Source of the DNA: an uncultured Verrucomicrobiae bacterium
Lineage (GTDB): Bacteria; Verrucomicrobiota; Verrucomicrobiia; Chthoniobacterales; JAATET01
Assembly (NCBI GenBank): GCA_963719495.1
Contig: CAVRCI010000012.1
Location: 32,001-96,000 of the forward strand
Length of the DNA: 64,000 nt
Direction: 5' to 3'
In this document: piece after piece, positions 14,912-64,000 of the stretch
Layout: each line of letters starts with the position of its first letter
Numbering within the stretch: the first letter of the stretch is position 1
Notes under the pieces: generated by a model
The model's input: only the letters and a program-made list of their open reading frames with translations
What the model was told of the DNA's origin: nothing
The model's database searches: none
Made by a program: the position numbers and the translations under genes

Positions 14912-16150
14912 TCACAAAAGCACCCCCACCACGGTAGCCGAAAGGTAACAAGCCAGCACCCCACCCACCATCGCGCGAAGCCCGAGCCGCGCCAAATCCC
15001 CCCGCCGCTCCGGCACCAGCGACCCGATCCCGCCGATCTGAATCGCAATGCTCGACAAATTCGCGAACCCGCACAGCGCGTAAGCCGTTAGAATAAAGCT
15101 TCGTTCGTCCATCGTGTCCTTCAGCTGCGCGAGACTCAGATACCCAATGAACTCATTGAGAACGATCCGCTCGCCCAGCACCTGACCCGCCACCGCGCAA
15201 TCCTCCGCCCGGATCCCGATCACCCAGGCAAACGGCCAGTTCAACCACCCCAAAAACTGCTGCAACGTCACCGGCTCCGCCACCCCCAGCGCCGCCTGCG
15301 GAGCCGTCACCAACGCGTTGAGCAGCGCCACGATCGCCACGAACGCGATCAGCATCGCGATTACGTTGATCGCCAGCATCATCCCATCGCCCGCCCCCCG
15401 GCACAGCGCATCCAGCCCGTTCGAAGTCGTCCGCTCCACCTCCGCCGAAGCCTCCGCCCCCGTCTCACTCTCCTCCGTCTCCGGCAGCATGATCTTCGCG
15501 ATGATCAATCCAGCCGGCGCACTCAGCACCGACGCCGTCAGCAGATGCCCCGCGTCCACCCCCAGCTGCGCGTAAATCGCAAACACGCTGCTCGCCACCG
15601 TCGCGAACCCGCACGTCATGAGCGCCATCAGTTCACTCTGCGTCATCCCCTTCAAATAAGGCCGAATGAGCAACGGAGCCTCCGTCTGCCCGACAAAAAT
15701 GTTACTCGCCGCCGCCAACGTCTCGCTCCCACTCGTCCGCAGAAGTTTCCGCATCACCCAGGCCAACCCGTGGACCACTTTCTGCAAAATCCCGTAGTGG
15801 TAAAGCGCCGCCGAAATCGACGAAACCACCACGATCACCGCCGTCACCGTGACCGCGAAGACGTAGGCATTCGGGCCAAAAGCCGCCCCCAACTTCGCCC
15901 CATCCGCCAACGGCCCGAAGACCATTTGCGCCCCCACGTTCGCAAACTCCGCGATCTTCGCCACCCCCAACCGCGCCCCGCCGAAGACCGTTTTCCCCAA
16001 ATCCGTTTTCAGAATCAGCACCGCCAAAACGAACTGCAACCCGAGCCCCCAGACCACCGTCCGCCACGGAAACAACCGCTTGTGCCGCGACAACGCCCAA
16101 GCCAACCCCAGCATCACCACCAATCCCAGAAGACTCGTTAACTGCAACAT
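14912..16150 (-). CDS. NupC/CNT family nucleoside transporter
   Basis: SGSETLAAASNIFVGQTEAPL, GERIVLNEF and LCGFANLSSIAIQIG motifs. Confidence 0.92.
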   Translation of the reverse strand: MLQLTSLLGLVVMLGLAWALSRHKRLFPWRTVVWGLGLQFVLAVLILKTDLGKTVFGGARLGVAKIAEFANVGAQMVFGPLADGAKLGAAFGPNAYVFAVTVTAVIVVVSSISAALYHYGILQKVVHGLAWVMRKLLRTSGSETLAAASNIFVGQTEAPLLIRPYLKGMTQSELMALMTCGFATVASSVFAIYAQLGVDAGHLLTASVLSAPAGLIIAKIMLPETEESETGAEASAEVERTTSNGLDALCRGAGDGMMLAINVIAMLIAFVAIVALLNALVTAPQAALGVAEPVTLQQFLGWLNWPFAWVIGIRAEDCAVAGQVLGERIVLNEFIGYLSLAQLKDTMDERSFILTAYALCGFANLSSIAIQIGGIGSLVPERRGDLARLGLRAMVGGVLACYLSATVVGVLL

Positions 16151-16183
16151 CCCCACCCCTTTAAGCAATTCCCATTCCCCAAA

Positions 16184-16241
16184 CCGCCACCCCTTGCAAA
16201 ACTCCGATGCGGCCGCATCGGAGTTTTGCAAGGGGTGGCGG
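16184..16241. repeat. 58-bp perfect spacerless palindrome
   Basis: CCGCCACCCCTTGCAAAACTCCGATGCGG followed directly by its exact reverse complement. Confidence 0.95.
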
Positions 16242-16299
16242 CTGATTCGACGTCGGGCTGGCCAAATTTCGCCCACCCCGCCTAGTCTCCCGCCGCGCC

Positions 16300-16926
16300 A
16301 TGCAAGAAGCCTTCACGAATTGGATGACCGAGAGCATGACGTGGATCGAGGCCAGCGGCTGGGTGGGCTGGTTCGGGTTCATCGTCCTTTACGCCATCAC
16401 GTGCGTCTTCCTGCTCCCCGGCTCCCTCCTCACCGTCGGCGCCGGAGCCGCCTACGGCTTCTGGTCCGGCACCCTCCTCGTCACCATCGCCTCCGTCGCC
16501 GGAGCCGCCCTCAACTTCGCCACCAGCCGCTACCTCGTCCACAATTGGTTCCAGCGAAAATTCGCCCACAGCCCGAAATTCCGCGCCCTCGACCGAGCCA
16601 TCGCCCACGGCGGCTGGCGCATCGTCCTCCTCAGCCGCCTCTCCCCGGTCCTCCCCCACAGCCTCGTCAGCTACGCCTGCGGACTCACGACCATCTCCAT
16701 GACCCGATTCACCCTCGCATCGTGGATCGGTTTCATCCCCATCAGCGCCGCCTACGCCTACACCGGAGCCCTATTGGGAAAAATCGCGAGAGCCAAAGCC
16801 GGCCTCCCCCACGGAATCGAATCCTGGATCCTCTACGGCCTGGGCCTGGCAGCCACAATCGCCGTAACCGTCTATTCAGCAAAAATCGCCAACGAAGCCC
16901 TCCGAACAAAGGTCGACATCGAGTAG
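16300..16926 (+). CDS. TVP38/TMEM64 (DedA/VTT) membrane protein
   Basis: LPGSLLTVGAGAAYG, RLSPVLP and SYACGLT motifs. Confidence 0.9.
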   Translation: MQEAFTNWMTESMTWIEASGWVGWFGFIVLYAITCVFLLPGSLLTVGAGAAYGFWSGTLLVTIASVAGAALNFATSRYLVHNWFQRKFAHSPKFRALDRAIAHGGWRIVLLSRLSPVLPHSLVSYACGLTTISMTRFTLASWIGFIPISAAYAYTGALLGKIARAKAGLPHGIESWILYGLGLAATIAVTVYSAKIANEALRTKVDIE

Positions 16927-16980
16927 AGCGGGGAGCGCACGCGTCCCCGCGTGCGAGATGCGGCGTCCCGCCGCATCAAG

Positions 16981-17047
16981 CCCGGCAACCCGCGCCAGCG
17001 GGAGCCGCCCGCCCTCCACCAGTCACCAATCACCAATCACCAATCAC
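16981..17047. repeat. 28-bp repeat plus heptamer (TCACCAA)n tract
   Basis: 16981-17008 is identical to 53743-53770; CCTCCACCAGTCACCA(A/G)TCACCAATC recurs at about 56701-56727. Confidence 0.7.
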
Positions 17048-17070
17048 GCCGTAACCGGCCCCTCCACCAA

Positions 17071-19020
17071 TCACGCGACAAACTGCCGGTGCAAAATCTG
17101 CAAACACAACAAGTGGTTAAGCAAAGCATCCTTCCGCACCAGCGAAGCCGAGTCGCCATCCGCCCGATACCCGTCCAAAAACGCCCCAACCCGCCCCGCG
17201 TCGAACAACCCAGCCTCCCGCACGCTCCCCTCGTCCAGATACTTGTCGGTCAAAGCCCGCACCGCTTGCTGCTTTTTCACGTCGGTATGCGCCGGCGGAG
17301 CCATGAACGAAAACTTCTCCCGCTTATACAACACCTCCGGCAACACCCCCCGCACCGCCTCCCGCAGCACGTGCTTTTCGATGTTCCCCTTGATTCGCAA
17401 ATTCGGTGGCACGTGAACCGCCGCCTCCGCCACGTGGTGATCGAGAAACGCCGGTCGCGACTCCATCGAGTTCGCCATATCCACCCGGTCGCCGCCCCAG
17501 TTGAGAATCTGACTCTCCAGCATCGTCTTGCTCCACGTGTATTGCGACTTATCCAGCGGATGCCGCCCGCGCACCATCGACGGGTCGATTTCGCCCGCGA
17601 TCGCCGCCACCGGATCGTAAGCCCCGATCTCCTCGGCCGCGTCATCACTCAGCAAAGGCCGCGCGATCCCCAGCGTCGCGATCCAACTCTGAATCCATGC
17701 CGGCGTGAACCCGCACAAATCCTCCCAGGCTGGATGCGTCTCCGCCTGCTCGGAAAGCAAAGCCCCCTTGAAGATCGCGTTGAATTTCTCGAGCGCCGCC
17801 TCGTATTCCCGCCGCACGCTTGCCGGCTCGTCCGCCAGTCCGTGTTGAAACATGTCGCGCTTGAAAAACGCGTAGCCGCCGAAAAGCTCGTCCGCCCCCT
17901 CGCCCGTGATCACCGTCTTGTAGCCCGCGTCCCGCACGTGCTGGCTCATGCAATACTTCGCCACGCCCAGCGTGTTGTAGAACGACCGTTCCGTGTGCCA
18001 CACCGTCCGCTCGTAATTCTCGCCGTAAAGCTCCGCCGCCTGCAGCTTGATCACGTCGTGATCCGCCCCGACGCTCGCCGCCATCTCGCGCGCGATCACC
18101 GATTCATCGTAGTCGTCGCTGTCGAAGCTAATGGTAAACGCCTTCACCGGACTTTGCATCGCACCCGAAGCCATCCCGAGGATGCAACAGCTGTCGATGC
18201 CGCCCGAAAGATAACACCCCACCGGCACGTCCGCCTCGAGCCGATGCCCGACGGCCTCGACCAATTCCTTGCGAATCGTCGCCACGTGGTCCGCTTCCGA
18301 GCGCCCTGGGTCCCGCGCGTCCGCCTCCGGAAATTCCAGGTCCCAATACCGCCGCTCCTCCACGTCCAGCCGGTCGCCCCGCCGCTTCACGATCACCATG
18401 TGCCCCGGCTTCACGGCCTTGATGCCCTCGAACGCACTGGTCCCGAGCACCATCGTTTGCATCATCTGATTCAGCGCCGCCCGCCGATCCATCCGGCACG
18501 GAACGTCCGGATGCGCGAGCAGCACCTTGACCTCTGACCCAAAGTAAATCCCCTTCTCGGAAACGTGGTAAAACAAAGGCCGCACCCCGAAGCGATCCCG
18601 CACCAAGGCTAAACGATCCTCCTTCCGATCATACAGTGCGAAGGCAAATTCCCCCCGAATCTGCGGCATGAGATCCAGCCCATACTTGCGATACAACGGC
18701 ATCACCAACTCGCTGTCCGACTTCGTCACGAATCGCTCGCCCTCCGTCATCAGCGTCGACCGGATCCGCTTGTAATCGTAGAGCTCCCCGTTCATCACCA
18801 TCGACAAATCGTCGTCGCCGCTGGACAGCGGCTGACAACCCGTGTGCAGATCGACGATCGTCAACCGCGCGTGCCCCAGAGCCAAGCCCAGCTTGGGATC
18901 TACCTTCGTCCCGCGCCCATCCGGCCCACGGTGACGCTGCACGTCGATCATCCGGTTGAGGGCGCGTTCGTCGTCGGGCGCGAGGCCCGTCGGTTTGAAA
19001 AATCCGGCAATTCCGCACAT
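17071..19020 (-). CDS. asnB: Asparagine synthase (glutamine-hydrolysing)-like amidotransferase
   Basis: N-terminal MCGIAG (Ntn Cys), HRGPDG, RDRFGVRPL, LSGGIDS and TGEGADELFGGY motifs. Confidence 0.92.
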   Translation of the reverse strand: MCGIAGFFKPTGLAPDDERALNRMIDVQRHRGPDGRGTKVDPKLGLALGHARLTIVDLHTGCQPLSSGDDDLSMVMNGELYDYKRIRSTLMTEGERFVTKSDSELVMPLYRKYGLDLMPQIRGEFAFALYDRKEDRLALVRDRFGVRPLFYHVSEKGIYFGSEVKVLLAHPDVPCRMDRRAALNQMMQTMVLGTSAFEGIKAVKPGHMVIVKRRGDRLDVEERRYWDLEFPEADARDPGRSEADHVATIRKELVEAVGHRLEADVPVGCYLSGGIDSCCILGMASGAMQSPVKAFTISFDSDDYDESVIAREMAASVGADHDVIKLQAAELYGENYERTVWHTERSFYNTLGVAKYCMSQHVRDAGYKTVITGEGADELFGGYAFFKRDMFQHGLADEPASVRREYEAALEKFNAIFKGALLSEQAETHPAWEDLCGFTPAWIQSWIATLGIARPLLSDDAAEEIGAYDPVAAIAGEIDPSMVRGRHPLDKSQYTWSKTMLESQILNWGGDRVDMANSMESRPAFLDHHVAEAAVHVPPNLRIKGNIEKHVLREAVRGVLPEVLYKREKFSFMAPPAHTDVKKQQAVRALTDKYLDEGSVREAGLFDAGRVGAFLDGYRADGDSASLVRKDALLNHLLCLQILHRQFVA

Positions 19021-19027
19021 AAGAAGA

Positions 19028-20116
19028 TTAGCTAAGTGGAAGATTCTCGGGCAGCCGATTGCACCTGCCCATCACCGCCGTCAGCAGCGCCTGACGAATG
19101 AAGACCGCCCCGTGCGCCTGCGACCAGTAGAGATTGTGCGGCGTCCGATCCAGACTCGTGTCCAGCTCCTCGAGCCTCGCAAGCGGATGCAGAATGACCG
19201 CGCCATCCTTGAGTTCGCTGTCCGCGTCGAGGCGGAACCTGGAGTCCAGATTTTTGTAACCATCGCCGACCTGCACGATGGAGTTCATGTAGATCACGTC
19301 CAATTCCGGAAGGCAGTTTTCGATGTCGTTCGTGATCTCGGACTCGAAACTCGCCGCCGCGATGTCGTTCGCCAGCTCCTCGCCGAACGGATCGGCCATC
19401 TCCGAAACGAACGTGATCTTTTCGATGTGTTCCTGAAAGAGCAACGCCATGTGAACGAAACTCTTCACCGCCCGCATGCTCCCCGGCGTCCCGAGCACCC
19501 CAATCCGGAGCCGCTCCGAGACCGGCTCGCGCTTGGCTAATTCAGGACGCCACTTCAGCAGCGCATACCAATCCGCCATGGCCTGAGTCGGGTGGTCGCC
19601 CGTGCCGTTTCCGGCGTTGATCAACGGCAGGCGCAGATTTTTCATGATCCGCTCCGGCGCGTCCGCTTCGGTGTGCCGCATGATCACGCAATCGCCGTAG
19701 GCGTTGAACATTTCGCCGATGTCCTCGAGCGATTCCCCCTTCTTCACTCCCGTCGTCTTCCCGTCCGGGATGCTAATGATTCGCCCGTCGAGCCGCAGCA
19801 CCGCGCTCTCGAACGACAACCGCGTCCGCGTGCTCGCCTCGAAGAACGCCGTGATCACGATGTATTTGTCCAACGGCCGGTGTGGCCCAATTTCAATCGC
19901 CTCCAACACCGAGGCCAGCTTGCAAAGCTCGACGATCTCCGTCCGCGAGAATTGCTTCACCGACAGCACGCTGCGAAACGCCATCCCCTGCAGCACCTCG
20001 AGGTCGATGTTCGTCCGCCGAAAGAGCGAATTTGCCTCCGGGTGCAAAGACAGCGACTCCGGCGGCGGCGCGAGCACCTCGAGCAACCGATTCGGTTTGA
20101 ACGTCGGCGCGTCCAT
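19028..20116 (-). CDS. ATCase/OTCase-family carbamoyltransferase with non-canonical acceptor site
   Basis: FFEASTRT, KGES, INAGNG..HPTQ and HPLAR present; YMNSIVQ where ATCase has YMTRVQKER. Confidence 0.85.
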   Translation of the reverse strand: MDAPTFKPNRLLEVLAPPPESLSLHPEANSLFRRTNIDLEVLQGMAFRSVLSVKQFSRTEIVELCKLASVLEAIEIGPHRPLDKYIVITAFFEASTRTRLSFESAVLRLDGRIISIPDGKTTGVKKGESLEDIGEMFNAYGDCVIMRHTEADAPERIMKNLRLPLINAGNGTGDHPTQAMADWYALLKWRPELAKREPVSERLRIGVLGTPGSMRAVKSFVHMALLFQEHIEKITFVSEMADPFGEELANDIAAASFESEITNDIENCLPELDVIYMNSIVQVGDGYKNLDSRFRLDADSELKDGAVILHPLARLEELDTSLDRTPHNLYWSQAHGAVFIRQALLTAVMGRCNRLPENLPLS

Positions 20117-20235
20117 CACCAAACGCGTCCTTTCCGGTGATCCCGCCAGATCATCGCGATCAGCGTCACCGCGCCAGCCGACGTCCAGATCAGCGCGGTC
20201 CAAATGAGAATTTCGACGAAGGTGAGTGCAAACAT
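20116..20235 (-). CDS. 39-aa single-TM small protein (not in ORF track)
   Basis: MFALTFVEILIWTALIWTSAGAVTLIAMIWRDHRKGRVW; starts 4 nt after the transporter stop, and its TGA overlaps the next ATG (TGATG). Confidence 0.7.
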   Translation of the reverse strand: MFALTFVEILIWTALIWTSAGAVTLIAMIWRDHRKGRVW

Positions 20236-20239
20236 GGCG

Positions 20240-21661
20240 TTAGTGTTCGTTGAGGGTCTTCCAATCGAATGGGTCGGGTCGCAAAGCCGTCGTCACGAGC
20301 ACCGTCACCATCGACACCGCCGCGCTGATCAGCGACGCCGAGAACCAACCAATCTGATAATACGCGATCAACCCGATCACCGACCCCAGCAACATCGCCG
20401 CCGTCGCACCCGCTCGCGACGTCCGCGGAAAATACAACCCGGACACGATTGGCCAGATCGTGCTCGCGACCAGCGGCCCCGAAAGAAAGAGCACCGTAAT
20501 GAGATCGCCCACGTTCGGCAGACAGATCCCCCAAGTCAGCACCCCCAACCCCACGATCACCCAGGTCGAAGCTCGGCGCACCGTCGCCTCGCTGGCCGCC
20601 GGATTGAACGCCTTCCGGTAAATGTCCTCCGTCACCAGATCCGCCGTCGCCGCCAGCAGGCTGTCGATGCTCGAAGCCAGCGAACAGAACAGCACGATGA
20701 ACACCAGGATCGAACCCACTCCCCCCAGCACCTGACTCGCCACCAGCGGCCCGACCATGTCCGGGTCCGCCGCGTTGATCCCCAACGGCCCCGCGCAAAG
20801 CCCGATGAACCCCGCCGCAATCGGAATCGGGAACCACAGCACCCCCGAAATAAGAAACGCCTTCAGCGGCACCCCCTTCCGCATGGCAAAGGCCCGACTC
20901 CACCACACGTTGTTGTGAAAGACCTCGCCGAACCCGAAGAACAGATTGTTGAACAGCGCCAGCAGCGCCACCGGCATGAATACATGCAGCAAAGTCGGCT
21001 GATCCGCCGAGATCGACGTGTAAACCGCCTCGACGTCGATCCGCATGAGCACGACCACACCGACCACCACGATCCCGACGAGAATGATGACGCTCTGAAT
21101 AAAATCCGTCCCGATCACCGCGTAAAGCCCGCCGAAGAGCGTGTAGGTAATGCAAACGAACAAAATCGCCGACATCCCGTATTCGTAAGGAATCCCCGAC
21201 AGCGCCTGCAGAAATTTCCCGCCTGCCATTGCCATGCTCACCAGCCACGCCATCGAATAAACCAGCGAAATCACCAAAAACAGCCCCCAGGCCACCCGCC
21301 CGAACCGCAGCCGCACGAAGTCACCGCTCGTGTAGCCATTCGGCATCAAGTCGCGAATCCTGTGCGCCATCGGCGCAAACAGAAACAACCCGAAACTCGC
21401 CGTCGAATAAGCCAGCATCCCCCAGATCCCCATCTTCATCGCGAAGACCGGCGCGAGCATCACCGTGCTCGACGTCACCCACGTCGCCATCGCCGTCGCC
21501 GCCGAGAGAGCCAACCCGACGTTCCGCCCCGCGAGCATGAACCCATCCAGATTGACCGCCTTCTTCCCCCAATAAACCCCCAACCCGATCCAGATCACGC
21601 CAAAGACCGCGAGCAGCAGATAGCCCATTCCAGGATCGAGCACGGAGCTTTGCAAATTCAT
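20240..21661 (-). CDS. Sodium:solute symporter family transporter (DUR3/urea-transporter-like)
   Basis: FMLAGRNVG, ATWVT, GGLYAVIGTDFIQ and SSIDSLL motifs; many TM segments; ATG 21661 coupled to the upstream stop. Confidence 0.9.
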   Translation of the reverse strand: MNLQSSVLDPGMGYLLLAVFGVIWIGLGVYWGKKAVNLDGFMLAGRNVGLALSAATAMATWVTSSTVMLAPVFAMKMGIWGMLAYSTASFGLFLFAPMAHRIRDLMPNGYTSGDFVRLRFGRVAWGLFLVISLVYSMAWLVSMAMAGGKFLQALSGIPYEYGMSAILFVCITYTLFGGLYAVIGTDFIQSVIILVGIVVVGVVVLMRIDVEAVYTSISADQPTLLHVFMPVALLALFNNLFFGFGEVFHNNVWWSRAFAMRKGVPLKAFLISGVLWFPIPIAAGFIGLCAGPLGINAADPDMVGPLVASQVLGGVGSILVFIVLFCSLASSIDSLLAATADLVTEDIYRKAFNPAASEATVRRASTWVIVGLGVLTWGICLPNVGDLITVLFLSGPLVASTIWPIVSGLYFPRTSRAGATAAMLLGSVIGLIAYYQIGWFSASLISAAVSMVTVLVTTALRPDPFDWKTLNEH

Positions 21662-22140
21662 CAGACGAGTTCCTCCCCGGCCTGCTGCCGCCGAAATCCC
21701 CTCACCACGGTCGACACCGTCAGCCCAAACACCGTCAATCCGACGCCCAGGAGCGTCCAAACCTTCCAAGCCGCTGGGTATTCCACGAGCACGTCCAGCG
21801 TCTCCGACCAAGGACCCCCAACCGCCCGCACCCGGAACGAATGCGTCCCATCCGGCAGCCCCGAAGCAAAGAACGCCAAATCCGGCCCCACGTAGCGAAC
21901 CTTCTCACCTTCAACGACTTCGTAATCCACCGCCCCCGCGACCGCCAACCAATTGAGCAGAACGTGGCCCTCCCCCGCGACCACCGGCTCCGTCATTTCC
22001 CAGCGCGGAGCCTCCAGAGCCAACGCCGAACCAATCAGCAAAAACGCAACAAAAACTCGAATGGGGATCGAAAAAGCGATGCTCCCACCGTGAAAAACGA
22101 ACTCCCGAACATCAAGCAAAAGCCGGGAGACAGGGAGCAC
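21661..22140 (-). CDS. Small exported, membrane-anchored protein with FN3-like domain
   Basis: Signal-like FVAFLLIGSALA, LNW..V.GAVDYEV, SGLPDGTHSFRVRAVGGPWS, C-terminal TM helix; start uncertain. Confidence 0.65.
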   Translation of the reverse strand: MLPVSRLLLDVREFVFHGGSIAFSIPIRVFVAFLLIGSALALEAPRWEMTEPVVAGEGHVLLNWLAVAGAVDYEVVEGEKVRYVGPDLAFFASGLPDGTHSFRVRAVGGPWSETLDVLVEYPAAWKVWTLLGVGLTVFGLTVSTVVRGFRRQQAGEELV

Positions 22141-22295
22141 ACCCGTCCCGGGTGTGAGCTTCGGCGTCCCCGCCGAAGCCTCGTTCCAAAACGCGAAGCG
22201 TCACTTCCCCCTTCACCCGCATCCATTCGCGTCCATTCGCGTGTTTAGCGGGTCCCTCACCCGATTTGCCAACCTCCCCGCCCACCTGTTAACCA

Positions 22296-23585
22296 TTGGC
22301 GGTGCCACCCGAAAACACCCGCGCCACCCCGCTCGCCGACCTCCGCGTCGACCCGAAGCGCCTCCGCGAAGACCTCCGCACCCTCTCCGCCTTCGGTTAC
22401 AACGACACCGACCACGGCATCTACCGCATGGCGTTCACCGAGGCCGACCTCGCCGCCCGCCATTGGCTGCAGGACGAAATGCGCGCCCTCGGCATGGCCG
22501 TCCGCATCGACGGAGCCGCCAACGTCATCGGCCACTGGCCGCCCCACGACACCCGGCCCGCCGTTATCCTCGGTTCCCACACCGACACCGTCCCCTGCGG
22601 CGGCCACCTCGACGGCAACCTCGGCGTCCTCTGCGGCCTCGAAGCCGCCCGCGTCCTCATCGAAGCCGACGTCCAGCTCGACCGCCCCATCGAAGTCATC
22701 TCCTTCTCCGACGAAGAGGGTCGTTTCGGCGGCATGCTCGGATCCGAAGCCTTCACCGGTCGCCTCACCCCCGAGCGCCTCCTCGGAGCCATCGATTTAA
22801 CCGGCACCCGCCTCGCCGACGCGATGATCGCTCGCGGCCTCGAACCCACCGCCGCCCTCGACGCCCGCCGCGAACCCTCCAGTATCCACGCCTTCCTCGA
22901 ACTCCACATCGAGCAAGGCCCCGTCCTCGACGCCGCCCGCAAGCAGCTCGGCATCGTCGACCAGATCACCGGCCTCTTCCGCTGGTCCGCCCGCCTCTTC
23001 GGCAAACCCAACCACGCCGGCACCACCCCCATGAACCTCCGCCAGGACGCCTTTCTGGGCCTGGCCGAATTCGCCAACGAAATCCCTCGCGTCCTCGAGG
23101 AAAACGGCAGCGACCGCAGCCGCGCCACCATCGGCAACGTCGAACTCACCCCCGGCGCCGCGAACACCATCCCGGGCTGCGCGGAATTCTCGCTCGACGT
23201 CCGCGACACCGACCCCGACACCCTCGAAGAGCTCTCCCGCGCCTTCCGCAAGGCCCTCTCCGCCATCGCCCGCCGTCACGACCTCCGCTTCGAATTCGAC
23301 GAAGTCTCCCGCATCGCCCCCCGGCCCTGCGCCCCCGCCGTCGTCGACGCCCTCCGCCGCCAAGCCGAGCGGCTCGAGACCACCTTCGAAGTCATGCCCA
23401 GCGGCGCCGCCCACGATTCCCAGCTTCTCGCCGAGATTTGTCCCGTCGGCATGATCTTCGTCCCCAGCCGCGACGGCCAGAGCCACTCGCCCGCCGAATG
23501 GACCGCCTGGCAGGACGTCGAAGCCGGTGCCAACGTCCTCCTCCAAACCGCACTCGAACTCACCCGCACTGAAATCGAACGATGA
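22296..23585 (+). CDS. Zn-dependent N-carbamoyl-L-amino acid amidohydrolase / allantoate amidohydrolase family (M20)
   Basis: GSHTDTV, DGNLG, DEEG, ELHIEQGP, HAGTTPM and SGAAHD motifs. Confidence 0.92.
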   Translation: MAVPPENTRATPLADLRVDPKRLREDLRTLSAFGYNDTDHGIYRMAFTEADLAARHWLQDEMRALGMAVRIDGAANVIGHWPPHDTRPAVILGSHTDTVPCGGHLDGNLGVLCGLEAARVLIEADVQLDRPIEVISFSDEEGRFGGMLGSEAFTGRLTPERLLGAIDLTGTRLADAMIARGLEPTAALDARREPSSIHAFLELHIEQGPVLDAARKQLGIVDQITGLFRWSARLFGKPNHAGTTPMNLRQDAFLGLAEFANEIPRVLEENGSDRSRATIGNVELTPGAANTIPGCAEFSLDVRDTDPDTLEELSRAFRKALSAIARRHDLRFEFDEVSRIAPRPCAPAVVDALRRQAERLETTFEVMPSGAAHDSQLLAEICPVGMIFVPSRDGQSHSPAEWTAWQDVEAGANVLLQTALELTRTEIER

Positions 23586-24319
23586 AAATTACCGACGCCA
23601 CCGACCGCGATCCGCTCCTCGACCTCTACAAAAGCTCCCTCGGCGAGGAAAACCCAGCCCACCACTGGATGCTGGCCCGCCAGCAGACCGCGCTCCTTTG
23701 CATCGACATGCAATACCTCGACGCCGCCCGCGGCCACGGCATCTTCCGCGACGCCACCTCCTCCGGCGTCCCGCTCGAGGACCAGGAATACTACTTCTCC
23801 ACCCTCGAAGGCCGCGTCATCCCCCGCCTCCGCCGCCTCCAGGACACCTTCCGCCGCGCCGAACTCGAAGTCATCCACGTCCGCATCCAGGCCCTCACCG
23901 CCGACGGACGCGACCGTTCCAAGGGCCACAAACGCCTCGGCGTCCTCGCCGGCCCCGGCACCCGCGAAGCCGATTTCCTCGAAGCCGTCGCCCCCCAAGG
24001 CGACGAAATCGTCATCAACAAGACCGCCAGCGGCGTCTTCTCCGCCACGAACATCAATTTCGTCCTGAAAAATCTCGGCATTACCGCCGTCTACGTCGCC
24101 GGCGTCTACACCAACGAATGCGTGGAAACGACGATCCGCGACGCCTGCGACCTCGGCTACCTCGTCACCATGGTCGACGACTGCTGCACGACCGTGACCC
24201 CCGAACTCCAACGCGCCTCCATCGCCGTCCTCCGCGACCGCTACGCCCGCATCCTCTCCAGCGACGACGCCATCGCCGAGATCCAGTCCATCGAGGCGGA
24301 ACGGCAACCCGCCGCGTAA
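23582..24319 (+). CDS. Isochorismatase-family cysteine hydrolase
   Basis: Asp-Lys-Cys triad: IDMQ, INKTASG, GVYTNECVETT; ATGA overlap with the upstream gene. Confidence 0.9.
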   Translation: MKITDATDRDPLLDLYKSSLGEENPAHHWMLARQQTALLCIDMQYLDAARGHGIFRDATSSGVPLEDQEYYFSTLEGRVIPRLRRLQDTFRRAELEVIHVRIQALTADGRDRSKGHKRLGVLAGPGTREADFLEAVAPQGDEIVINKTASGVFSATNINFVLKNLGITAVYVAGVYTNECVETTIRDACDLGYLVTMVDDCCTTVTPELQRASIAVLRDRYARILSSDDAIAEIQSIEAERQPAA

Positions 24320-24355
24320 TCAGACCGAGCGAAGCAAAGCCATCCTCCAAAAAAA

Positions 24356-24454
24356 CTGTCATGTTGAGCGAAGCGAAGCATCTCTGGCTTCTCAGGCGTG
24401 ACGGCCCGCAACCAGAAACGAGCCAGAGATATTTCGCTCCGCTCAATATAACAG
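24356..24454. repeat. Inverted pair of REP family C (REPIN-like, possible terminator)
   Basis: 24356-24389 and 24421-24454 are imperfect reverse complements. Confidence 0.8.
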
Positions 24455-24644
24455 GTTTTGGAAAAAGGCCGTCTTCCCAACCAGGGTCAATCCTCTCCTC
24501 CACGCCTCACTTTCCAATCGACGCCGCCCTTCCTCCACCCAGCATCACCCCACCCCCCCGGAAAAGAGATTCACGCCCACGCCGCCTCGTGCGTATCCTT
24601 CGACAGATACCAGCAACCGCAAATTTTTACTTAAAAGCCATCCC

Positions 24645-25766
24645 ATGCCCACCATCGCCAAAGGACTCGAAGGAATCATCGCAAACTCGACCTCGCTCAG
24701 CGAAGTCATGGGAGCCGAGGGCATCCTCATCTACTCCGGCTACAACATCAACGACCTCGCCGGAAACGTCACTTTCGAGGAAATCGTCCACCTCCTCTGG
24801 CGCGGACACCTCCCCAACCGCGCCGAACTCGACGCCCTCACCGCGGAACTCCGCGCCCAGCGTGAACTCCCCGCCGGTGTTATCGAATTTCTCGAAACCG
24901 CCCCCAAAGACGCGGGCCCGATGGACGTCATCCGCACCGCCGTCTCCATGCTCGGCCTCTACGACCACGTCACCGGCGACGACGCCGAGGCCAACCAACA
25001 CCGCGCTGTCAGCATCACGTCGAAGATGGGCGTGATCGCCGCCTACTACCACCGCGCCCGCCAGGGTCTGGAGCTCCCCGCCGTCCGCGACGACCTCGGC
25101 GAAGCCGCCCACTTCCTCTACCTCCTCAACGGCGAGGAACCCACCGCCGAGATGGAACGAACCCTCGACGTCGCCTACGTCCTCCACGCCGACCACGGCA
25201 TGAACGCCTCGACCTTCTCCGCCCGCGTCACCATCGCCACCCTCAGCGACATTTTCTCCGCCATCACCTCCGCCATCGGCACCCTCAAGGGTCCCCTCCA
25301 CGGCGGGGCCAACGAAGGCGTCATCCACATGCTCCAGGAGATCGGCAGCGTCGACGCCGTCGACGCCTGGGTCGACGACGCCCTCGAAAACAAAAAGAAG
25401 ATCATGGGCATCGGCCACCGCGTTTACAAAACGCTCGACCCCCGCGCCCCCCACCTCCGCACCATGGCCATCAAGCTCTGCGAACAACTCGGCGAGCAGA
25501 AGTGGATCAAGATGAGCGAGCGGATCGCCGAGATCATGCGCGAGAAGAAGGAACTCAACGCCAACGTCGATTTCTACTCCGCCACGGTCTACTACTCGCT
25601 CGGCGTCCCGACCGACATGTTCACGCCGATCTTCGCGATTTCCCGCGCCGCGGGTTGGACCGCCCACGTCCTCGAGCAGCTCTCCGACAACCGCCTCTAC
25701 CGCCCCCTCAGCGAATACGTCGGCCCCGAAGTCGGCAAGAAAGTCGTCCCCATCGACGAACGGTAG
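24645..25766 (+). CDS. gltA: Citrate synthase
   Basis: KGLEG, HADHGMNASTF, GPLHGGANE, GIGHRVYK and NVDFYS motifs. Confidence 0.95.
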   Translation: MPTIAKGLEGIIANSTSLSEVMGAEGILIYSGYNINDLAGNVTFEEIVHLLWRGHLPNRAELDALTAELRAQRELPAGVIEFLETAPKDAGPMDVIRTAVSMLGLYDHVTGDDAEANQHRAVSITSKMGVIAAYYHRARQGLELPAVRDDLGEAAHFLYLLNGEEPTAEMERTLDVAYVLHADHGMNASTFSARVTIATLSDIFSAITSAIGTLKGPLHGGANEGVIHMLQEIGSVDAVDAWVDDALENKKKIMGIGHRVYKTLDPRAPHLRTMAIKLCEQLGEQKWIKMSERIAEIMREKKELNANVDFYSATVYYSLGVPTDMFTPIFAISRAAGWTAHVLEQLSDNRLYRPLSEYVGPEVGKKVVPIDER

Positions 25767-49776: not shown

Positions 49777-50771
49777 CCGAATCCGCGAAAGGTCGGCACG
49801 ACATCGACATCCAAAGCGTCGCCGTCCGGATTCGCCGAAAATTGGTGCGACGCCACGAACGCAATCATCGCCGCGTTATCCGTCCGCAACGCCGGCTCCG
49901 CGACCCGCAGTTCGACCCCGAGCCGCTCCGCCATCCCGCCCGCCCGCTCGCGCAATCGCCGGTTCGAACTCACCCCACCACTCAGCGCCAGGCAGCGCCG
50001 ATCCGTTCCCGCCAGCGCCCGCTCGGCCTTTCCAACCAGCACCTCGACAACGGCCTCCTGAAACGACGCGCACGCGTCGGCCAGCCGCGGCTTTTCCTTC
50101 TCGAAGCAATACCGCACCGCCGTCTTCAGTCCGCTGAAACTGAACTGGTAATCCCCCGAATGCAGCATGCTTCGCGGAAACGCGTAGGCCGCCGCGTCCC
50201 CCTCCGCCGCCAGCCGGTCGATCTCGATTCCGCCCGGATAACCCAGCCCGAGCAGCTTCGCGACTTTGTCGAATGCCTCGCCCGCCGCGTCGTCGACCGT
50301 CGCTCCCAGCACCTCGTAAGCCCCGTAACCCGCCACGTCGACAAGCATCGTGTGGCCACCGCTCACCACCAATCCCACGTGCGGCGCAATCTCCGGTTCG
50401 CCAAAAAACGGCGACAACAAATGCCCCTCCATGTGATTCACCGCGACAAAGGGCCGACCCGCCCCGATCGCCAGCGCCTTCCCCATCGCCACGCCCACCA
50501 CCAGAGCCGCCGGCAATCCCGGACCCGTCGTCGCCGAGAAATAATCCACCGCCGCGAGCTCGATCCCAGCCGACACCAGCGCCCGCTCCACCAGTCCCGG
50601 CAGAATCTCCGAATGACTCCGCGACGCCACTTCGGGCACGACCCCGCCGTAGGCGGAATGAATCTCCGCCTGCGACCAGACCTCGCTCGCCAGCAACTCA
50701 CCGTGCCCGCGCAACACGGCCACCGCCGTCTCGTCGCACGACGTCTCGATCGCCAATCCAACCATCGTCAC
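49752..50771 (-). CDS. tsaD: tRNA threonylcarbamoyladenosine biosynthesis protein TsaD
   Basis: IETSCDET, HMEGH, SGGHT, DDAAGEAFDK, FSFSGLKT and DNAAMIA motifs. Confidence 0.96.
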   Translation of the reverse strand: MTMVGLAIETSCDETAVAVLRGHGELLASEVWSQAEIHSAYGGVVPEVASRSHSEILPGLVERALVSAGIELAAVDYFSATTGPGLPAALVVGVAMGKALAIGAGRPFVAVNHMEGHLLSPFFGEPEIAPHVGLVVSGGHTMLVDVAGYGAYEVLGATVDDAAGEAFDKVAKLLGLGYPGGIEIDRLAAEGDAAAYAFPRSMLHSGDYQFSFSGLKTAVRYCFEKEKPRLADACASFQEAVVEVLVGKAERALAGTDRRCLALSGGVSSNRRLRERAGGMAERLGVELRVAEPALRTDNAAMIAFVASHQFSANPDGDALDVDVVPTFRGFGQAALSGV

Positions 50772-50799
50772 CCGCCCCGACCGAACGCCTCAGCCGCCG

Positions 50800-52077
50800 C
50801 TATCCGCGGCTCGGCTTCCCCGATTTCTCCTTGTCCGAATACAGCAGCACACCTGTGATCGCGTCCACGGCACGATCGAGCTGCGGATCGGTCACGCTGG
50901 ATTCCATCGTCGCATCCGCCAGCCCGGGGACGGACCGCCGCCGCCGCTCGCGGTAAAGCTCCGCCTCCTCGGCCAGCGTCATCGTGCAGCGAATGTCGGG
51001 ATCGACGCCGTGCTCGTGGATCGGGCGGCGACTCGGCGTGTAGTATTTCTGCGTCGTGAACCGCATCGCCGATCCGTCCGGCAGCGATACGACACTTTGA
51101 ACCGATCCTTTCCCGAACGTTGTTTCGCCCACGAGAATCGCTCGATTCAGGTCCTTGAGCGCACCGGCCACAATCTCCGAGCCGCTCGCGCTGGAATTAT
51201 TGATCAGGATCGCCACGGGATAAGTGCGGGTCCCGCCGGGCATCCGCCGCGTCGTGTATTCCCGCGACGGCGACCGGCCTTCCGTCGAGACGACCCGCGT
51301 ATTCGGCGGGAGAAATTGCGCGCAAACGTCGACCGCGCTCCCGAGCAAACCACCCGGATTGAAACGCAGATCCAACACCAACGCTTCCATTCCCTCCTCC
51401 TCCAGCCCGTCGAGTGCCTGGCCCAGCTCGGCCGCGGTGGGCTCGTTGAATTGCTCGACCCGCACGTAGCCCACCTTGTGCCCCGCCGTCCGGCCTTCCG
51501 GTATGATCTGAGCATCGACCACACTCGGGACCTTGATCACCGCACGCGCGAGCGTCACGTCCTTGAGCGTCCGGGTCGCTGGTTGCCCGATGGTGAGAGT
51601 CACCTTCTCGCCGGCTTCCCCGCGCAGCATTTCGACCGCGTCGCCCATCGTGAGCCGGTCCGTCGAGATGTTGTTGATCTTGCGAATCTGATCCCCCGGC
51701 AGCAGCCCCGCGTTGAAGCCCGGCGTCCCGTCGGCGACGCCGATGATCGTGAGCAGACCACCCTTCGTCGTGACCGTCACGCCGAGTCCGCCGAATTCAC
51801 TCTTCGTATCCTCCTGCATCCCCTTGAAGTCCCGCGGATCCATGAACGAACTGTGCGGATCGAGTTCCGAAAGCATTCCCCGCATCGCGCTGTAAGTCAG
51901 GTCCTTGAACGACGTTTTCTCTCCGTCGACGTAATCCTGCCGGATCAACTGCATGGCTCGCGCCAGCACCTGCATGCTCTCGTAGGGCGAATCATCCTCC
52001 GCCTTCTCGTCCGCGCCCCGGGCCAGGCCCAAACCCACCACCAAAACGACTCCGCAGCCCGCCAGCCAATTTTTCAT
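50800..52077 (-). CDS. ctpA: Carboxyl-terminal processing protease (S41)
   Basis: LDPHS, PDZ domain, DLRFNPGG, SASGSEIV and GKGSVQ motifs. Confidence 0.92.
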   Translation of the reverse strand: MKNWLAGCGVVLVVGLGLARGADEKAEDDSPYESMQVLARAMQLIRQDYVDGEKTSFKDLTYSAMRGMLSELDPHSSFMDPRDFKGMQEDTKSEFGGLGVTVTTKGGLLTIIGVADGTPGFNAGLLPGDQIRKINNISTDRLTMGDAVEMLRGEAGEKVTLTIGQPATRTLKDVTLARAVIKVPSVVDAQIIPEGRTAGHKVGYVRVEQFNEPTAAELGQALDGLEEEGMEALVLDLRFNPGGLLGSAVDVCAQFLPPNTRVVSTEGRSPSREYTTRRMPGGTRTYPVAILINNSSASGSEIVAGALKDLNRAILVGETTFGKGSVQSVVSLPDGSAMRFTTQKYYTPSRRPIHEHGVDPDIRCTMTLAEEAELYRERRRRSVPGLADATMESSVTDPQLDRAVDAITGVLLYSDKEKSGKPSRG

Positions 52078-52766
52078 GCCGAAAAACTACCACAATCCGG
52101 CCGCCGCGAAAGGGCCGCGTAGGCCTCGGCGAGTTCCTCCCCCGGCACCACCACCGAATCATACCACCGGTTCAGATGCCGCAGGATCGCGACGAGCACC
52201 GCCTCCCGCTCCACCACCCGGCCCGCCGCCAGCGCCAGCGAAGTCGCCGAAGCCCGCAGCTCGATCGGAAAATCCGCCACCGCGTGCCCCACGTTCACCC
52301 CGATCCCCAGCACCGCGAAGGATTCCCGCCCCGTGCGCGCCTCGGTCAGAATCCCCGCCACCTTCCGCCCACTGAGAAACACGTCGTTCGGCGGCTTGAT
52401 CCGCGGCGTCAGCCCCGTCGCCTCCGCGACCCCACCCGCCACCGCCACCGCCGCCAGGGGCGTCACCCGTTCCAAAAACTCCGCGCCCCACGCCGGCCGC
52501 AGCAGCACCGAAAACCAAAGCCCCACCCCACCCAACGAATCCCACCGCCGGCCATACTGACCCCGCCCCCGCGTCTGCCGATCCGCGACCACCACCGCCC
52601 CCTCGACCGCACCCCCGATCGCCATCTCCCGCACCAAATCATTCGTCGAAGCCGTTTCCCGAAAAACCAAAACCCGTCGCCCGATGGCGCCGACACCCAG
52701 CGCCTCCCGCACCCGATCCGGATCCAGATCCACCGCCGAGAACGCACTTTTGACCGCAGACATCAC
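52074..52766 (-). CDS. birA: Biotin--[acetyl-CoA carboxylase] ligase
   Basis: STND, QTRGRGQYGRRW, KPPND, KVAGIL and GIGVNV motifs; no HTH; start uncertain. Confidence 0.9.
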   Translation of the reverse strand: MMSAVKSAFSAVDLDPDRVREALGVGAIGRRVLVFRETASTNDLVREMAIGGAVEGAVVVADRQTRGRGQYGRRWDSLGGVGLWFSVLLRPAWGAEFLERVTPLAAVAVAGGVAEATGLTPRIKPPNDVFLSGRKVAGILTEARTGRESFAVLGIGVNVGHAVADFPIELRASATSLALAAGRVVEREAVLVAILRHLNRWYDSVVVPGEELAEAYAALSRRPDCGSFSA

Positions 52767-52846
52767 AGATTTCGCGGATAATTACCCAACGAGCCAGTCA
52801 CCTCATTCATCCCCTCACCATCCGCGTAATCCGCGTAATCTGCGGT
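52753..52846. repeat. Inverted pair of a 9-nt-periodic repeat
   Basis: ACCGCAGACATCACAGATTTCGCGGAT ... ATCCGCGTAATCCGCGTAATCTGCGGT. Confidence 0.65.
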
Positions 52847-52860
52847 TGAAATTCTCACCC

Positions 52861-53706
52861 TCACAGATCTCGGATCAACTCCAGCGACAAGTCCACCGCC
52901 ACGGCCGAATGCGTCAGCGCCCCGATCGAAACGAAGTCCACCCCGGTCTTCGCCACGCTCCGCACCGTCCGCAGGTCGATCCCCCCACTCGCCTCCAACT
53001 CGATCCCCGCCGGGCGTCGGGCCACCGCCTCGCGCATCACGTCCAACGGCATGTTGTCCAGCAGCACGATGTCGACCCCCGGAATCTCGAAGAACGCCAA
53101 CGCCTGCTCCAGCGTGTCCGCCTCCACCTCCACCCGCACCTCCGGCCGCTCCCCCTTCACCCGGGCGATCCGGTCCGCCAAAGTCGCAACCTCGATCCCG
53201 CCGACCAAGTGATTGTCCTTCACCATCACCCGGTCGTAGAGCCCCATTCGGTGGTTCGTCCCGCCGCCCGCCAAGACCGCCGCTTTCTCCAGCGCCCGCC
53301 AACCAGGCGTCGTCTTCCGAGTATCCAGCACCCGGCACCCCGTCCCCGCCAACGCGTCGACGAACCGCCGAGTCAAAGTCGCCACCCCGCTCAGTCGCTG
53401 TAAAAAATTCAGAGCCACCCGCTCGCCCGTCAGCATTCCCCGGGTCGACCCGGAAATCTCCAGCACCGTATCCCCCGCCACCAGAGCCTCCCCATCCTCC
53501 ACCACCGCCCTCACAACCAACTCCGCATTCACCCGCCGAAAGACCTCCACCGCCAAATCGACCCCCGCCACCACGCAATCCCCCTTGGAAAAAATCCGCC
53601 CCGCACTCCGCCGCCCCGCATCGGTAAAAAACAGCGAAGTGACGTCCCCCGACCCAACATCCTCCGCCAGAGCCAACCCAATCAAATCATCCCCGTATTC
53701 TTTCAC
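52861..53706 (-). CDS. nadC: Nicotinate-nucleotide diphosphorylase (quinolinate phosphoribosyltransferase)
   Basis: EDVGSGDVT, DTRKTTPG, HRMGL, KDNH, LLDNM and EASGG motifs. Confidence 0.96.
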   Translation of the reverse strand: MKEYGDDLIGLALAEDVGSGDVTSLFFTDAGRRSAGRIFSKGDCVVAGVDLAVEVFRRVNAELVVRAVVEDGEALVAGDTVLEISGSTRGMLTGERVALNFLQRLSGVATLTRRFVDALAGTGCRVLDTRKTTPGWRALEKAAVLAGGGTNHRMGLYDRVMVKDNHLVGGIEVATLADRIARVKGERPEVRVEVEADTLEQALAFFEIPGVDIVLLDNMPLDVMREAVARRPAGIELEASGGIDLRTVRSVAKTGVDFVSIGALTHSAVAVDLSLELIRDL

Positions 53707-53770
53707 CCCTTTGCGTCCTTCGCGTTCTTCTGTTAAAAAAACCCCGGCAACCCGCGCCAGCGGGAGCCGC

Positions 53771-54820
53771 TCACACCGGCAACCCGATCAACTCCCGCTG
53801 CCACCGCATGAGACTATCCGCGGTCTCGTCGTTCGCCACCGCCTCCAATGCCCCGCGCGAAGCCACGATCGAAGGATCCAACCCCAACTCACTCGCCGCC
53901 CGATCCCGCACGACCTTCAGTTCGTCAAACCGATCCACCTGCGCCTGCGTCCGCCGCAATCCCCGTTTCCGGATCGGCTGAGGCCACTCGGCCTCCGGCA
54001 CCTGAAGTGCCAGCGCCAACGCCACGTCAAAACTCCGCCGACGCCGATTCGTCAGCCGAGGCGTCGAAAACGCCTGACCCCGACTCGCCCGCTCCGACAG
54101 CTCCAGCAAATCCCGGTTCCCCATCACGTGAAACGGCGGCCGATCCCAGTCCCGCGACTCCGTATCGCGCCAGTGCCACAGCACCCGGAGCACCGACTGC
54201 GCCCGCGTCGACAACTTCGCCGAACCCGAGATCCGCCACACCGTCTCCTCGTCCCGCTCCCGCGTCTCCCGCGACGCCGCGATGATCCGCACGATGGATT
54301 CCTGAAACCAATCCCAACGCCCCAGCCGCCGCAGCTCGGCCTCGATTTCCTCGCAAATCTTCAGCAGATACCGCGTGTCGTTCACCGCGTATTCCAGCAT
54401 CTGCTCCGGCAGCGGCCGCAGCGCCCAGTTCGCCTTCTGCGACGACTTCGAGAGCGTCACGCCAAAGTATTTCTCCACTAAAGCCGAGTAACCCAGCGCA
54501 TCGAACCCACACAGCCGCGCCCCGATCATCGTGTCGAAAATCTCGCCCGGCTCGAACGTCCCCGACTTCCGCAGCATCCGCAGATCGTAGTCCGCCCCGT
54601 GAAAAATCACCCGCCGCCCCGCGAACACGTCGAGAAAAGGTTGCAGCGGCATGTCCGCCAGCGGGTCCACCAGATCGTCGCCATCCGGCGTCGACACCTG
54701 AATCAAACAAAGCTTTTCGAAGTAGCAATGCAGACTGTCCGCCTCGGTATCGAGCGCGATGGTCGAGTGACCCTCCAGCCGCCCGATGAACTGCTCGAGC
54801 GCTTCCGACGTCGAAATCAA
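53771..54820 (-). CDS. rnd: Ribonuclease D (DEDDy exonuclease plus HRDC)
   Basis: ALDTEADS, HGADYD, FDTM, W..RPL and YAVNDT motifs. Confidence 0.9.
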   Translation of the reverse strand: MISTSEALEQFIGRLEGHSTIALDTEADSLHCYFEKLCLIQVSTPDGDDLVDPLADMPLQPFLDVFAGRRVIFHGADYDLRMLRKSGTFEPGEIFDTMIGARLCGFDALGYSALVEKYFGVTLSKSSQKANWALRPLPEQMLEYAVNDTRYLLKICEEIEAELRRLGRWDWFQESIVRIIAASRETRERDEETVWRISGSAKLSTRAQSVLRVLWHWRDTESRDWDRPPFHVMGNRDLLELSERASRGQAFSTPRLTNRRRRSFDVALALALQVPEAEWPQPIRKRGLRRTQAQVDRFDELKVVRDRAASELGLDPSIVASRGALEAVANDETADSLMRWQRELIGLPV

Positions 54821-55416
54821 GACAGTCGTGAGTTGTCCTCGTCCGGCACGAGTTCACCCGGACGACGCGCCCGCGGCTCGCGAGCCTGCGTATTCCCCTC
54901 GACCGGCACCGTCACGAACGGACCACCAGCCAGCGGCGCCACCTCCGTAAACGCCACGTCCGGCACGTCGCTCGGCTTCCCCTCGAGCGGGAAATCCTTG
55001 CGCAGCGGGTAATACGGATAGCCGTCCCACATCAGGATGCGGCGCAGATCGGGATGATTCGCGAATCGGATCCCCATCATGTCGAAGATCTCGCGCTCGT
55101 GCCAATCCGCCGTCGGCCACAGATCCGACACCGTCGGCGCCTCCGCCTCGTCCTCCGGCAGCTGAATCTTCACGCGCAAGTGCCCGTGAGTCGCCATCGA
55201 GTAAAGTTCGTAGACGATCTCCCACCGCGGCTCGGTCTCGAAATGATCCACGCTCGTGATGTCGATCAGGTAGTCGTAACCCAGCTCCGATTTGCAAAAA
55301 CCCAGCACGTCCCGCAACGCCGTCGGCAGAATCGAAACCGACGTCTCGCCCCGGAATTCCTTCGTCTCCAGCACCGCGTCCGGGAATTTTTCCTTAATTT
55401 TGTCCGCCTTCTCCAT
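54817..55416 (-). CDS. nuoC: NADH-quinone oxidoreductase subunit C
   Basis: WHEREIFDMMGI, HPDLRRIL and PLRKDFPL motifs. Confidence 0.95.
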   Translation of the reverse strand: MEKADKIKEKFPDAVLETKEFRGETSVSILPTALRDVLGFCKSELGYDYLIDITSVDHFETEPRWEIVYELYSMATHGHLRVKIQLPEDEAEAPTVSDLWPTADWHEREIFDMMGIRFANHPDLRRILMWDGYPYYPLRKDFPLEGKPSDVPDVAFTEVAPLAGGPFVTVPVEGNTQAREPRARRPGELVPDEDNSRLS

Positions 55417-55428
55417 CTGAAAAATCGA

Positions 55429-55950: not shown

Positions 55951-56012
55951 GCCCCGGACACTATTGAGGGACCGGAACGAATCAAGGCGGAATGTCGCCA
56001 CGCCGCCACGCC

Positions 56013-56593: not shown

Positions 56594-56736
56594 CTCCGCG
56601 CCAGCGGCCTATTCCCCAGGCCCTGTCATGCTGAGCAAAGCGAAGCATCTCTGGCTGACACTGCATTCGCCCCCACGCTCAGGCTGAACGAGCCAAAGAC
56701 CCTCCACCAGTCACCAGTCACCAATCAAGCCACCCA

Positions 56737-58516: not shown

Positions 58517-58565
58517 GTCCGCGCGACGATATTTTCACCACCCAAAAACGCAAATTCCGATTTCC

Positions 58566-58676: not shown

Positions 58677-58694
58677 CCCCATGCATTCCTTTAT

Positions 58695-59108: not shown

Positions 59109-59148
59109 TCGCGTCCATTAGCGGTTCAAATCTCACTCACCACAACGA

Positions 59149-63591: not shown

Positions 63592-64000
<409 letters not shown>

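Follow-up and report, generated by a model that had tools for sequence, protein, structure and literature searches.

The window (the whole 64,000-nucleotide stretch of DNA analysed) carries on its minus strand, from position 20116 to 19028, an open reading frame for a 362-amino-acid protein of the pseudo-aspartate carbamoyltransferase (pseudo-ATCase) type, which we propose to be an L-glutamine (or L-glutamate) N-carbamoyltransferase. Seven nucleotides downstream lies a minus-strand gene (17071..19020) for a 649-amino-acid AsnB-family glutamine amidotransferase/amide synthetase, a putative 1-amide synthetase. On the upstream side, a minus-strand gene for a 473-amino-acid sodium:solute symporter (SSF; 20240..21661), the proposed product importer, ends 123 nt before the carbamoyltransferase gene, and its start is overlapped by the stop codon of a minus-strand gene for a small protein of up to 159 amino acids (21661..22140, start uncertain). 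Two plus-strand genes diverge from this run: one for an M20 N-carbamoyl-amino-acid hydrolase (22296..23585) and one for an isochorismatase-family cysteine hydrolase (23582..24319), in which the D-K-C motifs are present and which is proposed to act as a 1-amidase. The M20 enzyme was assigned to the broad subfamily PRK09290.1-5 (501 bits, above cut-off), while the next model, ErtE (N-carbamyl-glutamate amidohydrolase), scored 397, under its cut-off of 520. The small protein has an N-terminal hydrophobic stretch, a probable fibronectin-III/Ig-like domain, and a hydrophobic C-terminal segment; it had no Pfam match, and in the ESM Atlas it matched an unnamed Fn3-like cluster at 0.94. No Rfam match was obtained over positions 16000-25000, and a promoter/terminator scan gave no signal above chance. 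GC skew of the plus strand is strongly negative (about -0.1 to -0.37) over positions 1-30000 and 50000-64000 of the window, and near zero at 38-46 kb.

Both Pfam domains, OTCace_N and OTCace, were matched in the 362-residue protein. Its AlphaFold model (pLDDT 91.9, pTM 0.92) has the ATCase fold, with Foldseek TM values of 0.74/0.86 to the T. cruzi ATCase, and the nearest solved structures are ATCases. An N-terminal extension, pointed out in the original prediction, was indeed observed; it comprises about 40 residues, is family-wide in the alignment, and is modelled with a pLDDT of 87-89 over residues 11-40. The motifs of the transcarbamylase superfamily are all recognizable: S95-T98, H175-Q178, the beta-4 arginine (R147), and HPLA as a variant of HxLP. 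The protein scored under the cut-off of every NCBIfam carbamoyltransferase model, including those for ATCases (174.7 versus 236.95 for TIGR00670, and 169.9 versus 263 for another). The ESM Atlas returned only “aspartate carbamoyltransferase” clusters, and a plasmid search returned a single record, an ordinary ATCase-level match of 32.9%. Affiliation with OTCases/PTCases was rejected, the DxxxSMG loop and HCLP motif being absent here and present in the ArgF of the same genome, and the scores (88 or less) falling far short of cut-offs of 280-545; membership in YgeW was also rejected. A pseudogene or sequencing artefact was excluded, since nothing interrupts the reading frame and 121 close homologues keep the motifs. 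Judged by its sequence, the gene is genuine and intact, and its product is a conserved enzyme belonging to a subfamily already described.

Residues of the active site were mapped by aligning the protein with E. coli PyrB, to which it is 29% identical. The carbamoyl phosphate site is retained: S52/T53/R54/T55 of PyrB correspond to S95-T98 in the STRT phosphate-binding motif (19823..19834, minus strand), H134 and Q137 to H175 and Q178 in the carbamoyl-binding HPTQ motif (residues 175-178; 19583..19594, minus strand), and R105 and R296 to R147 and R341; the KGES loop is likewise intact, as had been predicted along with the two other motifs. The trans-acting K84 is kept as K126, and R167 as R215 (19472..19474, minus strand), which is invariant in both alignments. 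In ATCase, R167 and K84 contact aspartate's alpha-carboxyl, while R229 and Q231 contact its beta-carboxyl group (Shi et al., PMC4581275). The latter pair is gone. PyrB YMTRVQKER reads YMNSIVQVG here, exactly as originally proposed, with T228, R229, Q231, E233, and R234 replaced by N278, S279, V281, V283, and G284, respectively, so that N-S-I-V (residues 278-281; 19274..19285, minus strand) stands in place of T-R229-V-Q231; in the family, this 240s-loop segment takes the forms NSIA, NAIA, and NSIV. HPLP is replaced by HPLA (residues 310-313; 19178..19189, minus strand) through the change of P268 to A313, and D162, K164, and S80 are changed to T210, G212, and G123. The replacement of GDLKxGRTVHS by GTPGSMRAVKS was also borne out by the alignment, and the arginine of the new segment is the equivalent of Arg167, a point absent from the original prediction.

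Alpha-carboxylate binding is thus, as far as the sequence tells, preserved. With K84 and R167 kept and R229 and Q231 replaced by small residues next to a near-invariant asparagine, the predicted active site fits an L-alpha-amino acid whose side chain is longer or neutral, and not aspartate. RxQxER is stated to be present in all known ATCases (PMC4581275), and the protein under study is almost certainly not an ATCase. The window's genome, which is 98.6% complete, encodes a canonical PyrB with RxQxER (C2:738214-739185), an ArgF (C14:153517-154617), CarB, and a second AsnB (609 aa, C13), but no carbamate kinase scoring over the cut-off. Compared with PyrB (EC 2.1.3.2), the window protein therefore shares the fold, the carbamoyl phosphate site, K84, and R167, but lacks RxQxER, has HPLA for HPLP and an N-terminal extension, and coexists with a true pyrB. 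The earlier proposal that the enzyme would carbamoylate a different amino acceptor is accordingly well supported, if by inference: the beta-carboxylate ligands are gone, scores lie below ATCase cut-offs, separate pyrB and argF genes are present, and the protein belongs to a clade of its own (SH-aLRT 100).

That clade does not, as the prediction had it, define a new transcarbamylase subfamily; it is the marine group of “pseudo-ATCases” described by Barba et al. in 2013 (PMC4016543), who gave it no function. Members listed there are R. baltica RB13301 and proteins of Nitrosococcus oceani, Synechococcus WH8102, and Kangiella; their genes are flanked by a Na+ symporter gene on one side and that of a “putative asparaginase” on the other, a HyuC-like gene is close by, and the motif row gives HPLA with AIA/AIS/SIA. 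The window locus agrees in STRT/HPTQ, in HPLA, and in its SIA-type 240s loop (SIV being a close variant), as well as in synteny, with a Na+ symporter on one side, an asparagine-type enzyme on the other, and a HyuC-like gene near; it differs in that the “asparaginase” of that report is here an amidotransferase of the asparagine synthetase type. The N. oceani ATCC 19707 member, which has NSIA and HPLA, shares 45% identity with the window protein across 315 aa. The numbering of groups 1 and 3 appears to be swapped between table and text in PMC4016543: the motifs stand under “pseudo-ATCase 1” in Table 1, the marine group is Subgroup 3 in the text and Figure 5, and N. oceani (Subgroup 3 of the text) has the motifs of group 1 of the table. 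Among pseudo-ATCases, only the Rubrobacter subgroup (UGTCase) had been assayed, and no function for the marine subgroup was found in the literature searched, a scope that leaves out most subscription journals.

All 121 of the closest full-length homologues (P0002-P0122, 56-92% identity) have GTPGSMR[AS]VKS together with YMNSI[AVT], and the replaced motifs are therefore not due to chance or decay. A second subclade, mostly from Gammaproteobacteria, has GVPxRMRTVRS and N[AS]IAW; the two subclades are 42-48% identical to each other and differ in their 160s loops. In a set of 331 family proteins, chosen by the patterns HP[LM][AS]R and S[TR]RT (which makes the HPLA count circular), the 240s loop reads NSIA in 198, NAIA in 98, and NSIV in 17, with 14 other forms and 4 unparsed; SIA/AIA thus occurs in 296/331, the window protein has the rarer NSIV form, and no parsed member has an arginine at the R229 position. 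In a quick maximum-likelihood tree built from 73 selected rows, the window protein, both subclades, N. oceani P0343, the E. mobilis proteins, and 12 degenerate derivatives form one clade (SH-aLRT 100, stem 1.14), outside which PyrB-like rows fall. The 12 derivatives make up a nested daughter clade (SH-aLRT 100) of 354-374-aa proteins (P0141, P0142, P0154, P0158, P0159, P0164-P0166, P0196, P0210, P0235, and P0251), which lack STRT, KGE, and HPLA and have an altered HPTQ, but keep the R167 loop and a YFxQxRG-like motif; from these sequences, they probably serve as pseudoenzymes or bind ligands. Such a gene occurs in 1 of 58 carrier genomes (G276:C2:413232-414293, locus L158), distant from the intact cassette and next to a gene whose product we take to resemble MarC. 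Another set of proteins without R229/Q231 (P0151, P0189, P0200, P0242, P0244, P0252, P0255, P0267, and P0246) forms a separate group nearer PyrB and possibly represents UGTCase-type subgroups or further specificities.

Occurrence of the gene is patchy. It was found in 5/5 genomes of the same genus, 0/11 others of the family, and 7/61 overall; elsewhere, 24 of 400 genomes in the class of genome G001 are carriers, as are 49/55 genomes in the order of genome G152. The closest relatives of the window protein are labelled Verrucomicrobiae/Chthoniobacterales, and record titles of homologues name Verrucomicrobiota, Planctomycetota, Bacteroidia, Acidobacteriota, Polyangiaceae, Leptospiraceae, and Proteobacteria.

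The original prediction overlooked the operon, and it is the operon that points to the substrate. We examined 135 loci (31 + 24 + 80), some of which are near-duplicates and hence not independent. An AsnB-type gene lies directly downstream of the carbamoyltransferase gene in 112 of the 113 loci with at least 500 nt of downstream flank, and in the sole exception the two hydrolase genes are inserted between them. The symporter gene lies upstream in 112 of the 118 loci with at least 600 nt of upstream flank. Where at least 5 kb was available on both sides (29 loci), an orthologue of the M20 gene was found in 24 and one of the cysteine hydrolase gene in 19. The small-protein family is represented in 57/135 loci, typically at the cassette start, and its product is a probable accessory subunit of the symporter and a candidate new SSF subunit. 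A MarR regulator gene is present in 30/135 loci; its product, which presumably resembles EctR, could be tied to neither EctR nor CosR through NCBIfam or PDB. Carbamate kinase genes are present in 2/135 loci, the related loci L074 (12996-13790, behind a Na+/H+ antiporter gene) and L087 (11982-12764), 0.8-1.5 kb after asnB; these kinases could supply or consume carbamoyl phosphate. In two Bacteroidia loci (L018:2760-5696 and L024:2644-5553), the M20/hydrolase pair is replaced by a gene for a protein of about 975 aa that resembles M20 weakly in its interior (25-29%) and gave no Pfam match at 1e-15. A class I SAM methyltransferase gene is present in L026, L030, and L112, and in the first two of these its neighbours are the MarR gene on one side and the small-protein gene on the other.

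The AsnB-type protein of the window has intact equivalents of Cys1, R30, R49, N74-G75, D98, SGGIDS, E348, and K449, and in all 70 full-length cassette copies the equivalents of Cys1, the oxyanion NG, the PP-loop, E348, and K449 are kept. At the position of E. coli Arg324, which serves aspartate binding in E. coli AsnB, the window protein has glycine, and all 70 cassette copies have glycine or alanine. A parallel is offered by the NAGGN pathway (asnO-ngg), in which a glutamine derivative with a capped N-terminus is amidated at its terminal carboxyl by an AsnB-family enzyme, yielding an uncharged osmolyte, and in which a MarR regulator gene is likewise adjacent (PMC8070244); there, in contrast, the cap is an acetyl group made by Ngg, and the product is a dipeptide. 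The window amidotransferase is not itself the AsnO of that pathway (300.5 versus a TIGR03104 cut-off of 570.1), and no ngg was found among its neighbours in the window.

An uncharged solute that would fit such a scheme is N-carbamoyl-glutamine amide (CGA), a minor solute for which a single organism has been reported (PMC3857566). Looked up by name, E. marismortui gives the taxid of E. mobilis, and the subfamily includes three proteins that carry the label Ectothiorhodospira mobilis; the cassette is present in the CGA-producing species, the match being at the level of species only. Genome G471, which encodes a protein 100% identical to E. mobilis P0400, has the order marR-M20-hydrolase-carbamoyltransferase-asnB, all on the same strand, with a sucrose synthase gene diverging from the run. 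The same run of genes is found in four genomes related to G471, and a sucrose synthase-like ORF was seen in both of those whose ORFs were listed. The M20 enzyme, the hydrolase, and AsnB of this locus are 56%, 61%, and 55% identical to those of the window, and an orthologue of the window symporter (54% identical) is encoded elsewhere in the genome. The carbamoyltransferases themselves are about 42-45% identical and belong to different subclades with different 160s loops, and hence their substrates may differ. There are three OTCace-fold genes in G471, two besides that of the cassette, which are presumably pyrB and argF; neither a NodU/CmcH-type carbamoyltransferase nor a carbamate kinase over the cut-off was found in this genome. 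If the other two genes are indeed pyrB and argF, the cassette gene is the sole surplus carbamoyltransferase gene in the two families tested and, by elimination, the operon is the best candidate for CGA synthesis in E. mobilis. No genes assigned to CGA were found in the literature searched, again with most subscription journals outside its scope.

We propose that the carbamoyltransferase would act anabolically, transferring the carbamoyl group of carbamoyl phosphate, supplied by housekeeping CarAB, to the alpha-amino group of L-glutamine; alternatively, the acceptor could be L-glutamate, which would then be amidated twice. Carbamoylation would come first, and the AsnB-type enzyme would then amidate the free carboxyl. 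The Na+ symporter, together with the small accessory protein, may import or recapture the product. M20 carbamoylases need a free carboxylate; in recycling, the cysteine hydrolase would remove the 1-amide first and the M20 enzyme would then remove the carbamoyl group, giving glutamine and ammonia. That the tightest partner is an ATP-consuming amide synthetase argues for synthesis. Carbamate kinase is a marker of catabolic transcarbamylases (PMC6022934), and its nearly constant absence, together with a constant partner that spends ATP, makes the synthetic direction the most likely one.

These considerations bear on claims of different scope. The enzyme probably catalyses the first step of a pathway to some N-carbamoyl amino acid amide. 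That it is the glutamine (or glutamate) N-carbamoyltransferase of a cassette for making, importing, and recycling CGA, where the direction of the reaction, its substrate and product, the sequence of steps, transport, and any part in osmotic protection are all read from the gene set, we hold to have about an even chance. More tentative still is the strictest version, in which the acceptor is glutamine and the six-gene cassette is a complete system for CGA synthesis, uptake, and degradation; glutamine N-carbamoyltransferase activity was not found described for the family in the literature searched. Against a role in CGA metabolism stands the fact that CGA is reported from one organism while the cassette occurs in many phyla. 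R. baltica has a subfamily member (PMC4016543), yet its solute pool by NMR consists of glutamate, sucrose, and MGG, and the word “carbamoyl” does not occur in that report (PMC3694870). The supplementary tables of the salt-shift transcriptome of R. baltica do not include RB13301; RB13300, its 62-aa neighbour, is given there as up at 10 min (PMC2754498). An asnB-pyrB2-pydC cluster in marine picocyanobacteria, that of Synechococcus being enriched in N-depleted water, was described by Dore et al. (bioRxiv 10.1101/2022.08.17.504260); from the gene names and the presence of Synechococcus WH8102 in the group of Barba et al., this is probably the same cassette, and such enrichment is awkward for the making of a four-nitrogen solute.

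In the 400-genome class sample, glycine/sarcosine methyltransferase (GSMT) was encoded in 10/24 carriers versus 21/376 non-carriers (Fisher p 1.7e-6, a value overstated by kinship); neither ectC (1/24 versus 45/376) nor nqrA (3/24 versus 63/376) was enriched in carriers. Genes for both betaine methyltransferases directly follow asnB in G276 and G217, and other cassette loci have genes for sucrose synthase, BCCT, OpuAC, or ectoine at their flanks. In the window's own genome, GSMT, sucrose synthase, BCCT, OtsA, and NqrA were not found and only an OpuAC-like match was obtained, and a salty lifestyle is therefore not established there; nqrA was found in 0/61 genomes of the window's order and, with the class-sample counts given above, is uninformative as a salt marker.

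Another N-carbamoyl amino acid amide, derived from Glu, Asn, Ala, Ser, or Gly and serving as a solute or a reversible nitrogen store, is a possible though rather unlikely product of the enzyme pair, at least in the window's subclade. The site analysis yields only “an alpha-amino acid, not aspartate”, the subclades have diverged to 42-48% identity with distinct 160s loops, no CGA is reported in R. baltica, and the recycling hydrolases are usual (M20 in 24/29 and amidase in 19/29 loci); on the other hand, CGA is the only natural N-carbamoyl amino acid amide solute in the literature searched, its producer species has the cassette, and the window and G471 share 54-61% identity in their partner enzymes. 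The two hydrolases, the symporter in 112/118 loci, enrichment of the cluster in N-depleted ocean niches (bioRxiv 10.1101/2022.08.17.504260), and the carbamate kinases of the two exceptional loci would also fit nitrogen scavenging, in which the symporter would import a ureido compound from outside, the hydrolases would free ammonia, and phosphorolysis by the transcarbamylase would provide carbamoyl phosphate for arginine or pyrimidines. We consider this improbable. Phosphorolysis is unfavourable without carbamate kinase (PMC6022934), which was not found in the window's genome, in G471, or in 133/135 loci; the ATP-dependent amide synthetase, the most constant partner, is left unexplained, and it is the hydrolases that are missing from 5-10 of 29 well-flanked loci, AsnB never.

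The chance that the gene codes for a further aspartate carbamoyltransferase serving an alternative route to pyrimidines, as the name pyrB2 implies and as Dore et al. tentatively suggested (bioRxiv 10.1101/2022.08.17.504260), appears very small. ATCases are the closest characterised relatives of the protein, but an active site devoid of the aspartate ligands argues against a pyrimidine role for asnB-pyrB2-pydC; RxQxER is absent, all ATCase cut-offs are missed, a canonical pyrB is present, and no dihydroorotase was found among recurrent neighbours or in 142 scanned ORFs (roughly half of 256 clusters). Scarcely more credible, and if anything less so, is a UGTCase-like enzyme of purine catabolism. 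UGTCase (Rxyl_2847), compared here by description, is the one characterised pseudo-ATCase; like the window protein, it is ATCase-derived, has lost R229/Q231, and keeps the R167 equivalent (PMC4016543, PMC4581275), and the neighbouring M20 enzyme matches an “allantoate amidohydrolase” subfamily model. UGTCase, however, is catabolic, has H(T/S)LP where HPLA is found here, and is encoded beside allantoinase and carbamate kinase, while no recurrent purine-catabolic gene was seen among the neighbours examined and the window's genome lacks a carbamate kinase over the cut-off.

Since 2013 the subfamily has stood without a function, and its members are regularly mislabelled as aspartate carbamoyltransferases; the present analysis adds a function open to test for the group of Barba et al., one that links it to CGA. 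Should the assignment to CGA hold, a compound recorded from one halophile since 1991 would turn out to be a common but overlooked osmolyte with four nitrogens and a dissolved organic nitrogen compound, with marine picocyanobacteria, PVC bacteria, Bacteroidota, and about 6% of the Gammaproteobacteria sampled making or exchanging it. A textbook enzyme family would then gain a new acceptor, and marine and saline communities an unrecognised nitrogen-rich metabolite.
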